IMG/VR virus record: IMGVR_UViG_648276660_000002
Source of the DNA: a virus
Taxonomy: Duplodnaviria; Heunggongvirae; Uroviricota; Caudoviricetes
Length of the DNA stretch: 6,659 nt
Strand: one strand, 5' to 3'
The position numbers and the translations under genes are program-made. Under the pieces are notes generated by a model. It did not search any database and was not told the DNA's origin. It saw nothing but the letters and a program-made list of their open reading frames with translations. Positions 389-5,791 of this stretch are shown here, one piece after another; within the stretch, counting starts at the first letter, position 1; each line of letters begins with the position of its first letter.

Positions 389-715
389 TCAAATAAGTGG
401 TTTGCTGCCTAATTTCATTTTCTGGCGACCAACACAAGTCACCCCCATTTCACTGCGTGGCTTGCTGTACCATGTGCGCTGATTCTTGCGCTCAATACGT
501 TGCAGGTTGCTTTCAATCTGTTCGTGGTATTCAGCCAGCACCGTAAGGTCTATCGGATTCAGTGCGCTTTCTACTCGTGATTTCGGTTTGCGATTCAGCG
601 AGAGAATAGGGCGGTTAACTGGTTTTGCGCTTACCCCAACCAACAGGGGATTTGCTGCTTTCCATTGAGCCTGTTTCTCTGCGCGACGTTCGCGGCGGCG
701 TGTTTGTGCATCCAT
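389..715 (-). CDS. N: Antitermination protein N (lambda-type), 108 aa
   Basis: From the internal Met (ATG at 715..713, preceded by AGGAG 7 nt upstream) the protein reads MDAQTRRRERRAEKQAQWKAANPLLVGVSAKPVNRPILSLNRKPK..., the arginine-rich boxB-binding N-terminus of lambda N. The ORF-track extension to 805 would run through nutL and is rejected. Confidence 0.93.
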   Translation of the reverse strand: MDAQTRRRERRAEKQAQWKAANPLLVGVSAKPVNRPILSLNRKPKSRVESALNPIDLTVLAEYHEQIESNLQRIERKNQRTWYSKPRSEMGVTCVGRQKMKLGSKPLI

Positions 716-825
716 CTGGATTCTCCTGTCAGTTAGCTTTGAGTAACGCGCCGTGATGCTTATCTCCACGGTTGCTGTCTTGCAGCTGCATTTCGCGCTA
801 CTCAAAGCTTTCTGCTTTGAATGCT

Positions 826-1018: not shown

Positions 1019-2371
<1,353 letters not shown>

Positions 2372-2487: not shown

Positions 2488-2769
2488 ATGGGTACTATTG
2501 CAACTAAAAGCAAGAAAGCGGCTCGCATCGAGTCAGCCTTGCTGAACAAACTGGCACTGATGGGGCAGAAGACATTCGCTCGAGCAATGGGGGTTCCTGA
2601 ATATCAGGTAAGCCGATGGAAGAATGGTTTCTTCTCGCAGGTAAGCATGATGCTGGCTGTTCTGGAATACGGAATCGAAGACGATGAAATGGCTGAGCTG
2701 ACTAAGCGGCTTGCCAATTACCTGACAAAAGAAAAAGCCCCGAAGAACGGCGAATTCTTCGAGGCCTGA
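2488..2769 (+). CDS. cII: CII transcriptional activator, 93 aa
   Basis: The segment [15 protein letters not shown]...[10 protein letters not shown]...[18 protein letters not shown] parallels lambda CII ([16 protein letters not shown]...SQISRWK...SMLLAVLEWGVVDDDMARL, from memory). AAGGA sits 8 nt upstream of the ATG. Confidence 0.9.
2500..2513 (-). promoter_or_regulatory. Candidate CII-binding site (TTGC-N6-TTGC) of a PRE-type leftward promoter
   Basis: Plus strand reads GCAA-CTAAAA-GCAA, i.e. TTGC-N6-TTGC on the minus strand, within cII codons 5-9, the same place as the lambda PRE -35 region. The -10 was not located. Confidence 0.5.
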
Positions 2770-2803
2770 TGTAGAAAGACTGGATCAATCCACAGGAGTC
2801 ATT

Positions 2804-2947
2804 ATGACAAAACAACTCAGTCCTTACCAGGACAAAATTCACAAACACATACTACGTGATCGCTTCCTGTCCAGCTTCAAGCAGCCTGGTCGATTCCGGG
2901 CTGAGTTGGAAAAAGTGAAGCTGATGCAGAAGGAGAAAGGTCATGAG
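2804..2947 (+). CDS. Small basic ORF, 47 aa ([48 protein letters not shown]), between cII and the O-like gene
   Basis: AGGAG at 2794..2798, 5 nt before the ATG. The stop overlaps the O-like start (ATGAGTAA). Below the ORF-track size cutoff; found by manual translation. Function unknown. Confidence 0.4.
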
Positions 2948-3803
2948 TAATCTTGCAACCGTAACACATTTAAGGCCTTCACAACGGCCTGTGGAGCGTC
3001 GTGTGGCAGAAGTTGAAGATGGTTATACCCGTCTTGCAAATGCCCTGTATGAAGAGCTTATCGGCGCAGATTTAACGAAAAATCAGAGCAAGGTTGCCCA
3101 CGCCATATGCCGTAAAACATACGGCTACGGTAAAAAGATGGATCGCATCTCTGATAGTCAGTTAGCTCAAATTACCAGGCTGCCAAGACAGAAGGTAAAC
3201 AAGGCCAAGAATGAGCTTATCGCGATGAAGGTTATCCTTCGCGAAGGCCAGCAAATCGGTCCTAACAAGAACATCGAAGAATGGCAAATCGAAGGGTGTC
3301 ACTACTCTGGTGATAATGTCACTACATTGGTGACAAAAAGTGTCACCAAAACGGTGACAGCGCTGTCACCAAAACAGGGACACACAAAAGAAACTATTAC
3401 AAAAGAAAAAAGAAATAATAAAAACACTATGTCCGAAAGTGTTCGGACGGAGTGTGAAAAATCACCTGACCGTCACGAAGAAATCGACAAGGCATTCGAG
3501 GAAATATTCTGGTGTGCAGGCATGCGGAAAGCCGGGAAGAAAAACGCAGCTTCGGCATTCAGAACACAGTTCAGGGAATGGCGTAAAACTACCAGGGGTA
3601 CGGCAAGCGAGTTTGCTACGATGCTGGCAGAAGACATCGCATGCAGGAATGGTAAGCAGTTCGGATTCGACAGGTTGTTACCATCGAGCTACCTGAACGG
3701 TCAACGCTGGAACGACGAGAAGCCAGAAACTATTCAACCACAATCCAAACCATCATCCGCAATCACCGTATCGAAAACTGGCTACGTGTTTTTCGACAGG
3801 TGA
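2943..3803 (+). CDS. O: Replication initiator, lambda O-like N-terminal origin-binding domain with divergent C-terminus, 286 aa
   Basis: N-domain matches lambda O in motifs [50 protein letters not shown]. The gene contains the iteron/AT-rich origin. The C-terminal third does not resemble the P-binding domain of lambda O as I recall it. Confidence 0.88.
3309..3428. other. Origin of replication inside the O-like gene: palindromic iterons (3309..3370) plus AT-rich region (3381..3428)
   Basis: GGTGAtaatGTCAC (3309..3322), GGTGACAaaaagTGTCACC (3329..3347), GGTGACAgcgcTGTCACC (3353..3370), then ACAAAAGAAACTATTACAAAAGAAAAAAGAAATAATAAAAACA. Same layout as ori-lambda. Confidence 0.75.
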
Positions 3804-3910
3804 ACCATGAAATCAAAAATCAAATCGCTACTGGTCGCTGGTTATAACCACGGCTGGTTAAGTATTTCTTTTGTCGATTTCTGGTTTAAAAATCTCAATC
3901 TGAGGGAATC

Positions 3911-5791
3911 ATGACGCCAAGTGAACTTAGCGACCTGCTTTGGGCGCAGGTTGACAGGGTGGCTCCGCACCTGTTGCCAAACGGCAAGAAAGAGGGGCAT
4001 GAGTGGGTTGCCGGTAACGTCAACGGCGACAAGGGAAACAGCCTTAAGGTCAACCTTAGCGGCAAGAAAAAATGGGCTGATTTCGCCGAGGGAGACGGCG
4101 GTGACATGCTTGATTTGTGGATGGCATGTCGTGGAATTAACCTGCATCAGGCTATGCAGGAAGCGAAAGCATTTCTCGGTATCAAGGATGACGATCACCA
4201 TTTCGATGCCAAACGTGAGAAAAAATTCTCCAGACCTGATCGCAAGAAAATCGCCCGCTACGTTACCAGAACAGAATCCCATCTTGAGTACCTGCAATCG
4301 CGTGGCATATCGCCAGAAATCGTAAAGCGCTACGAGGTTGTCAGCGGCAAGGTGTGGAATGGAGAGCGGGAACTGGATGCTCTGGTGATTCCGTACAAAC
4401 GCGATGGTGAGTTGTTGCAGGTCAAGCGAATCAGCACTGAGCGCCCGGACGGGAAGAAAGTCATTATGGCAGAAGGTGATTGCGAACCTTGTCTGTTCGG
4501 ATGGCAGGCTCTGGACGCTGGCGTGAGGGCGGTTGTGCTTTGCGAAGGCGAAATTGATTGTATGAGCTATGCGCAATACGGCATCTCGGCGTTATCCGTG
4601 CCGTTTGGTGGCGGGAAAGGCGCTAAGCAGCAGTGGATTGAGTTTGAGTATCACAACCTCGACAGGTTTGAGGAAATATTCATCTCGATGGACGTTGATG
4701 ATGTTGGTCGTGAAGCCGCAAGGGAAATCGCAAGCCGACTCGGTGAACATCGTTGCCGTCTTGTTACTCTGCCGTACAAAGACATCAACGAATGCCTGAT
4801 GAACGGTGTTACCGAGGATGAAATCTGGCAGTACATCGGCACGGCATCCTACTTCGATCCTGAAGAACTCTACAGCGCGCGAGAGTTTTACCAGGACACT
4901 ATCAACGCTTTCTACGGCAAGCAGCAGTATCTGTTTAATCCACCGTGGGAATCTCTGGCAGATAAATTCCAGTTCCGTGAGGCCGAGTTGACGCTGGTCA
5001 ATGGTGTGAACGGTCACGGAAAAACGGAGGTTGTCGGGCATATGGCACTTGAGGCAATGCGTCAGGGTGTGAAGACGTGCATCGCGTCACTTGAGCTGAA
5101 GCCTGGTATTCTCCTTAAGCGCCTTACCCGTCAGGCGACGTGCTGCAAGATGCCGCCAGTGCTGGAAATTGACTCTGCATTTAAATTTTATGACGAAAGA
5201 CTTTGGGTGTTTGGCCTGACCGGAACGGCGAAAGCCGACAGGCTGATCGAAATATTCGACTACGCTCGCCGCCGATACGGGATCCAGTTATTCATCATCG
5301 ACAGCCTGATGAAATGTGGCATAGGCGACGATGACTATAACGGGCAGAAGGCGTTTGTTGACTCGATTTGCGACTTCAAAAACAAAACAAACTCCCACGT
5401 CATTCTCGTTACTCACTCCAGAAAAGGAGACAGCGAAGAAAAACCAACCGGGAAAATGGACGTAAAAGGCTCTGGAGCGATAACAGACCTGACAGACAAC
5501 CTTTTCATCATCTGGCGTAACAAGGCTCGCGAGAGAGCGTTACAGAGAGTTCAGAGTGGTGAAAAGATGTCAGAGAAGGACGAACAGCTACTGGCATCTC
5601 CGGCATCTGTTTTGATGCTTGAAAAACAACGTAACGGCGAAGGTTGGGAAGGTGGTGTCCCGTTGTTCCTTGACGAGCAATCGCACCAGTTCCTGCAACT
5701 TGAATCAGGATCGCCATATAGCTACATCGCCAATATGCCGAAATCGGAATATGACGAGGCGTGGCGACAGGAAAACGTGACGGAGTATTAA
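3911..5791 (+). CDS. Bifunctional primase-helicase: DnaG-type Toprim primase fused to a RecA-fold, probably SF4 DnaB/T7-gp4-like, helicase; 626 aa
   Basis: Toprim acidic motifs CEGEID (4541..4558) and DVDD (4691..4702); Walker A GVNGHGKTE (about 5003..5029); Walker B LFIIDSL (5288..5308). GAGGG upstream of the ATG. Occupies the slot of lambda P. Confidence 0.9.
   Translation: MTPSELSDLLWAQVDRVAPHLLPNGKKEGHEWVAGNVNGDKGNSLKVNLSGKKKWADFAEGDGGDMLDLWMACRGINLHQAMQEAKAFLGIKDDDHHFDAKREKKFSRPDRKKIARYVTRTESHLEYLQSRGISPEIVKRYEVVSGKVWNGERELDALVIPYKRDGELLQVKRISTERPDGKKVIMAEGDCEPCLFGWQALDAGVRAVVLCEGEIDCMSYAQYGISALSVPFGGGKGAKQQWIEFEYHNLDRFEEIFISMDVDDVGREAAREIASRLGEHRCRLVTLPYKDINECLMNGVTEDEIWQYIGTASYFDPEELYSAREFYQDTINAFYGKQQYLFNPPWESLADKFQFREAELTLVNGVNGHGKTEVVGHMALEAMRQGVKTCIASLELKPGILLKRLTRQATCCKMPPVLEIDSAFKFYDERLWVFGLTGTAKADRLIEIFDYARRRYGIQLFIIDSLMKCGIGDDDYNGQKAFVDSICDFKNKTNSHVILVTHSRKGDSEEKPTGKMDVKGSGAITDLTDNLFIIWRNKARERALQRVQSGEKMSEKDEQLLASPASVLMLEKQRNGEGWEGGVPLFLDEQSHQFLQLESGSPYSYIANMPKSEYDEAWRQENVTEY

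Follow-up and report, generated by a model that had tools for sequence, protein, structure and literature searches.

The DUF2740 gene orf48 between cII and the replication initiator of a lambdoid phage, and its probable coupling to the initiator

The short reading frame that separates the cII-like gene from the O-like replication initiator in the window (the whole 6,659-nt stretch of phage DNA analysed here) is, with hardly any doubt, a genuine 48-aa protein gene, namely the orf48 of phage P22, called hkaW in HK620 and DUF2740 in Pfam. The locus, where the lysis-lysogeny switch (cII/oop) meets the genes for the start of replication, is among the most closely studied in phage biology. The gene itself is already known: the curated P22 genome annotates the ORF together with the promoter and terminator of oop, and Hayes et al. 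2012 described orf48 as sited between oop and gene 18 in P22 and absent from lambda (PMC3349717). That paper thus states outright what the initial annotation had proposed, that the window carries an extra gene relative to lambda. Our analysis adds evidence of purifying selection on the frame, an invariant overlap with the initiator, independence from the family of the flanking initiator and cII genes, and grounds for regarding the 'tail protein' label attached to the family as wrong.

The best explanation of these results, to which as a whole (gene identity, coupling and accessory factor) we give a probability of about 0.55, is that orf48 is an early-right operon gene of lambdoid phages, starting at the joint that lambda uses for O. 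Ribosomes on the pR transcript would end orf48 on top of the initiator start codon, and termination-reinitiation coupling would then cause both proteins to be made together. The product, basic and folded as two helices, would serve at the start of phage replication as an accessory factor that can be dispensed with. It would act on something invariant between phages, either a host protein or nucleic acid, and not on a particular initiator. Translational coupling to the initiator is the likely part of this reading, whilst the accessory role in replication, with a host protein or nucleic acid as the invariant target, is put forward tentatively. As lambda replicates without orf48, the protein is not a core replication factor.

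The window covers immunity and replication genes of lambdoid type, whose order was taken from Pfam, PHROG and ORF calls. The phage records nearest to it are those of Shigella phage Sf101, at 98.2% identity across 88% of its length, and coliphage mEp043. The features referred to below are as follows.

392-718, minus strand: N
About 1022-1423, minus strand: phrog_2651 gene (phrog_2651 E 1e-58; ORF 1019-1495, probable start 1423)
1423-2052, minus strand: cI
2156-2371, plus strand: cro
2488-2769, plus strand: cII-like gene, the predicted target of the oop-like RNA (Pfam Phage_CII, E 7.6e-30)
2727-2793, minus strand: predicted oop-like antisense RNA of about 67 nt (from folding, related loci and the P22 read)
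2735-2767, minus strand: oop-like intrinsic terminator hairpin, 14 pairs then TTTCTTTTGT (terminator scan)
2794-2798, plus strand: Shine-Dalgarno (SD) AGGAG of orf48, within the conserved joint block (from sequence)
2801-2829, minus strand: predicted pO promoter (-35 TGGTAA at 2829-2824, 17-nt spacer, TG at 2809-2808, -10 CATAAT at 2806-2801)
2804-2950, plus strand: orf48 / DUF2740 coding sequence (ATG at 2804, 48 codons, TAA at 2948-2950; ORF list, Pfam PF10872, tblastn)
2930-2950, plus strand: putative coupling junction (SD AAGGAG at 2930-2935, 7-nt spacer, initiator ATG at 2943, orf48 TAA at 2948-2950)
2943-3803, plus strand: O-like replication initiator (Pfam Phage_rep_O, E 1.1e-37)
3807-3914, plus strand: 35-aa ORF (MKSKIKSLLVAGYNHGWLSISFVDFWFKNLNLRES; phrog_21848, E 4e-26)
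3911-5791, plus strand: Toprim/DnaB-type primase-helicase

The frame had been described as a 47-aa ORF at 2804-2947. The ORF exists but encodes 48 aa, 2947 being the end of its last sense codon. Its other claimed properties were all confirmed. An AGGAG lies at 2794-2798 with the ATG five bases further on, and the O-like ATG at 2943 falls inside the frame, leaving 8 nt, ATGAGTAA (2943-2950), common to both genes. The product is rich in Lys and Arg (8 Lys and 4 Arg, 12 of 48 residues or 25%), with a computed pI of 10.1 and a net charge of about +5.8. Since 77 ORFs of at least 30 aa were listed in the window, the size of orf48 alone is unremarkable; it is the DUF2740 match (99 bits) and the codon-substitution pattern that place it above chance.

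Against Pfam DUF2740 (PF10872), orf48 scored E 8.9e-29 and 99.4 bits over model positions 1-43 of 43, with a gathering cut-off of 27 bits, and every homologue of the window gene was annotated DUF2740. The P22 orf48 (BK000583.1) showed 85.4% identity to the window ORF over 48 aa in a tblastn search, the HK620 hkaW and HK022 copies were 100% identical to it, and the phage L record calls its homologue 'orf48 in P22'. High identity, synteny and a frame selected as protein thus all identify the window gene as the orthologue of P22 orf48. Across P22, HK620, HK022 and phage L the gene has the same length, the same position behind cII/c1 and the oop promoter, and the same 8-nt ATGAGTAA overlap, with 85-100% amino acid identity. 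In the P22 record, where orf48 is annotated 'unknown', the oop terminator likewise lies over the end of c1, the oop promoter lies over the start of orf48 and gene 18 overlaps orf48 by 8 nt. The window copy differs from that of P22 in being the E. coli/Shigella variant (MTKQ...LMQKEKGHE), with nothing of substance otherwise; downstream, P22 has genes 18 and 12 whereas the window has a Phage_rep_O initiator and the primase-helicase. Overall, tblastn found orf48 in 127 phage records, including P22, HK620, HK022, HK630 and the Stx1 and Stx2-II converting phages, and megablast found it in 400 of 5,426 complete E. coli genomes (about 7%), where PGAP names it 'DUF2740 family protein'.

PHROG 1913 also matched orf48 (HMM E 2.7e-28) and bears the label 'tail protein'. 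We rejected a tail role, as the gene belongs to the early-right operon and overlaps a replication initiator across 227 loci; 'tail protein' is almost certainly a misannotation of the orf48 family. Many RefSeq phage records repeat it, for example NC_019706, NC_002730, NC_027398 and NC_014900. Our literature search found no functional study of orf48 or DUF2740, and outside the P22 and lambda papers the name 'orf48' refers to unrelated genes.

The start of orf48 lies in a block at about 2780-2814, ACTGGATC.ATC.ACAGGAGT.ATTATGACAAA, which was common to the window, lambda, P22 and HK97 in a four-phage alignment. On its top strand this joint carries an SD and ATG ACA AA, and on its bottom strand the -10 and start of the oop promoter. 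Lambda shares the joint, an antisense oop that terminates within the 3' end of cII, and a pO -10 CATAAT on the start codon, but there the joint ATG starts O itself, with no ORF between. In lambda O does follow closely after cII, as the initial annotation had it (the end of cII is at 38653, the start of O at 38686). In HK97 the equivalent slot holds gp53, a basic 53-aa ORF with the joint start MTK and a 14-nt overlap with O. It has no similarity to orf48 past the first three codons and so forms a separate family. About 650 further E. coli genomes matched orf48 partially, and all seven rows sampled from them (H76-H82) proved to be the 34-35-nt joint alone, six of them at a gene named 'replication protein', the arrangement seen in lambda. 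These partial matches illustrate a short, highly conserved module boundary.

To compare the gene across phages, 228 related loci were fetched by protein similarity and, with the window, gave 229 sequences. The intact 47-48-aa ORF was present in 227 of these, the two exceptions being truncated or without a start, a count biased towards intact copies because the loci were retrieved through similarity to the protein. They comprised 56 unique 147-nt sequences, encoding 24 of 25 distinct proteins. The final 13 nt of orf48, AGGTCATGAGTAA, which contain the initiator start codon, were invariant across the 56 unique sequences, and the junction ATG within ATGAGTAA was present in 227 of 227 loci. Downstream lay a gene of one of two initiator sequence families, either Phage_rep_O (including P22 gp18) or a protein of ~299 aa, phrog_345, for which there was no significant Pfam match. 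In even the most distant members (P0057 and P0063, 46 aa) the overlapping gene was a phrog_345 initiator, with a DnaB-type helicase after it. Where another gene was inserted after cII (a 178-aa ORF in L219, a 249-aa ORF in L232), DUF2740 still overlapped the initiator. The gene thus travels with the initiator gene and not with cII/oop, and its sequence is nearly the same whichever initiator family or cII type flanks it. The main orf48 type (>92% identity) occurred in 85 and 65 unique combinations with the two initiator families, and its upstream partners fell into at least 10 gene clusters.

The inserted genes were themselves of some interest. The 178-aa ORF (L219 1955-2491, and 11 similar loci) showed a weak match to DNA polymerase III beta, the sliding clamp, and is labelled 'RusA-like' by PHROG 3007, which looks inconsistent with the clamp match. 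The 249-aa ORF (L232 3255-4004), between cII and orf48, belongs to phrog_874.

The SD in front of the initiator (AAGGAG, at a spacing of 7 nt) is itself good and is not covered by mRNA structure (z = -0.9); folding of the mRNA at both ends of orf48 gave no significant structure (z about -0.8 to -0.9), and thus no sign that coupling is enforced by structure. Because the initiator SD is good and unoccluded, coupling is plausible but not obligatory.

Conservation and codon-substitution analysis, proposed in the initial annotation as a check on the frame, came out in favour of a protein, with the frame kept in 227 loci, a third-position bias and a low pN/pS. Among the 56 unique sequences, variable columns at the three codon positions numbered 14/12/29 over the whole of orf48. 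Taken from summed pairwise Nei-Gojobori counts, in which pairs are not independent and no tree-based model is used, pN/pS for the whole gene was 0.32 in frame, whereas the two other sense frames gave 1.45 and 1.00 and the antisense frames 0.45-1.1. In codons 13-41, chosen to exclude the overlapping pO promoter and the initiator ribosome-binding site, the pattern was sharper (7/6/19 variable columns; pN/pS 0.19 in frame against 2.27 and 1.31 in the other sense frames). Divergence of orf48 was low overall (pS about 0.25) and many codons were invariant even in the third position, which could reflect nucleotide-level constraint or recombinational homogenisation. The substitution pattern argues for purifying selection on orf48. 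The pN/pS of 0.19 in codons 13-41, together with retention of the gene in loci without an adjacent oop, indicates that the ORF is not incidental.

The same conservation could be read without an active peptide. Here orf48 would be an adapter or spacer only, an open frame that delivers ribosomes from the joint to a foreign initiator, conserved through overlapping DNA and RNA signals and through use as a homologous 'linker' in module exchange. There are signals at both ends (pO over codons 1-9 and the invariant last 13 nt), mosaic breakpoints fall exactly at the orf48 ends (matches 11-463 and 292-613 of the query), the same orf48 is found between unrelated modules, HK97 fills the slot with a non-homologous 53-aa ORF that has the MTK start and the O overlap, and lambda has no such ORF. 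However, codons 13-41, which are clear of these signals, have the pN/pS of 0.19 with third-position variation, and relatives at about 40-60% identity retain the orf48 length and its charged motifs. Furthermore, frame and protein are both kept where the start is not ATTATG and oop is not adjacent. We therefore consider a purely passive spacer unlikely.

Nor do we favour a role in which the orf48 protein is dedicated to the initiator and binds O/gp18 as its chaperone, co-initiator or inhibitor; this too has a low probability. The constant adjacency and the initiator overlap form a layout typical of interacting pairs made in a fixed ratio. Against this, the same orf48 variant (>92% identity) precedes two initiator families with no Pfam domain in common, and the helicases differ too, with a primase-helicase in the window and DnaB-like proteins elsewhere. 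The orf48 type showed no co-variation with the downstream gene, minor types accounting for the Cramer's V of 0.42. In one locus (L204; IMGVR_UViG_2751185946_000004) orf48 is followed not by an initiator but by an overlapping 60-aa ORF with a ClpX zinc finger (zf-C4_ClpX, E 1e-15), which begins MSN through the same ATGAGTAA junction.

AlphaFold2 predicted two helices in the orf48 product, at residues 7-23 and 28-44 (mean pLDDT 79, pTM 0.36, from a 33-sequence alignment). The family has near-invariant charged motifs, DK.HK.I.RDR and a second motif of 11 residues. The suggestion that the ORF encodes a small regulator or nucleic-acid-binding protein was borne out as far as a conserved basic small protein is concerned; for the role itself, neither sequence nor fold searches returned a functional relative. 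A profile search of 1.84 billion representatives gave 20 matches, with no fused domains hinting at function. These were DUF2740 fragments or repeats of low meaning, and the informative ones were small enterobacterial proteins of the same family. One apparent cII-orf48 fusion (P0056) was rejected as a read-through artefact. In a profile search of PDB sequences the only match was PhnI, at a sub-threshold E of 0.11, and we treated it as chance or convergence. The likeness is between orf48 residues 21-48 (window 2864-2947), FVSHLKLPHYVDFQAELELLKRLQQEKNH, and the extreme C-terminus of E. coli PhnI. Convergence may account for part of it, should the end of phnI likewise carry an SD and an overlapping phnJ start.

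In the replication control of ColE1, pairing of the antisense RNA is modulated by Rop/Rom, a small helical-hairpin protein. It offers a loose analogy only, that of a small two-helix protein beside an antisense RNA and a replication gene. We found no structural similarity of orf48 to the Rop hairpin and rejected membership of a Rop/Rom-like four-helix-bundle family. A related view holds that the orf48 protein is a regulatory factor and not a passive leader, either a Rop-like modulator of OOP-cII pairing or of pR/pO collision, or a binder of a conserved host replication or transcription protein. Either role would link the start of replication to the lysis-lysogeny switch in the many lambdoid phages with orf48, as a control layer that lambda lacks, but we regard this as quite improbable.

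The initial annotation had also raised the possibility that the interval holds an oop-like antisense RNA and that the ORF is incidental. The RNA gene appears to be present, whilst the incidental ORF is contradicted by the pN/pS and by retention where oop is not adjacent. The predicted RNA is complementary to the cII 3' end (cII ends at 2769) and to the cII-orf48 spacer, and the minus-strand stretch 2793-2727 had a folding energy of -27.2 kcal/mol (z = -4.86), with the RNA 5' end (2793 or 2790) placed by reference to lambda and P22. A terminator scan located the hairpin at 2767-2735 on the minus strand, to the left of the ORF; the promoter was placed by homology to lambda and P22, and its -35, TGGTAA, has 3 of 6 consensus bases, the consensus promoter scan making no call. 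In position, the predicted pO corresponds to what P22 BK000583.1 annotates as 'promoter oop'. The terminator overlaps the cII stop codon region and has an annotated counterpart in the P22 and phage L records. The lambda oop RNA is 77 nt, longer than the roughly 67 nt predicted in the window, and has a different hairpin sequence.

Comparison of the related loci was in line with this assignment. The sequence ATTATG at the orf48 start (CATAAT on the minus strand) was found in 200 of 227 loci, and in 199 of these 200 a hairpin and U-tract lay 64-82 nt from the predicted RNA start. With each unique sequence folded separately, at least nine distinct terminator stem sequences were seen among the ATTATG loci, the lambda oop sequence among them. 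Two characters of a lambda-type OOP are present at the locus, an overlap with the end of cII and a conserved Rho-independent terminator with compensatory changes. Codon 2 (2807-2809) was always NCA in ATTATG loci (Thr, Pro, Ala or Ser), its first base free and its CA fixed. On our reading, the minus strand thereby retains a TG just one base ahead of CATAAT, the mark of an extended -10 promoter, which would constrain a protein residue. RNA from related phages is on record: OOP-BTP1 RNA was detected in BTP1 (PMC7067206), and the P22 oop RNA is represented by a 63-nt RNA-seq read (PMC13397905). The first 30 nt of that read are identical to the window. A search of the whole window with Rfam gave nothing for oop, its sole match being a chance-level Mu-gpT-DE inside the O-like gene.

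That the interval is nothing more than an oop-like RNA with its promoter, and the ORF a chance frame, has a very small probability: the RNA gene is clearly there and its promoter lies over the ORF start, but the predicted RNA itself sits to the left of the ORF, the promoter covers just 26 of its 147 nt (codons 1-9), the codon-position pattern and pN/pS fit the frame of orf48 alone, and the ORF persists without an adjacent oop.

Three further features of the window deserve mention. The phrog_2651 gene, without a Pfam or NCBIfam match, lies downstream of cI in the rex/sieB position. Starting it at an internal Met gives an ATGA overlap with the cI stop and a signal-peptide-like start, which suggests a secreted, prophage-expressed 'moron' co-transcribed with the repressor.

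Within the O-like gene, 3297-3382 holds four iterons, TGTCAC-N7-GGTGACA, spaced 20-24 nt apart, and these are followed by an A-rich tract with repeated ACAAAAGAAA (region 3297-3428). The replication origin is thus likely to lie inside the O-like gene, at 3297-3428. In lambda, Olszewski 2014 found ori to be crippled by even 6-10 bp inserted between pO and ori (PMC3985674). In the window orf48 lengthens the distance between pO and the initiator gene by about 140 bp, so such a spacing rule for pO and ori cannot be general.

Finally, the stop codon of the 35-aa ORF overlaps the start of the primase-helicase gene (ATGA, 3911-3914), making it a second conserved micro-ORF apparently coupled to a replication gene.
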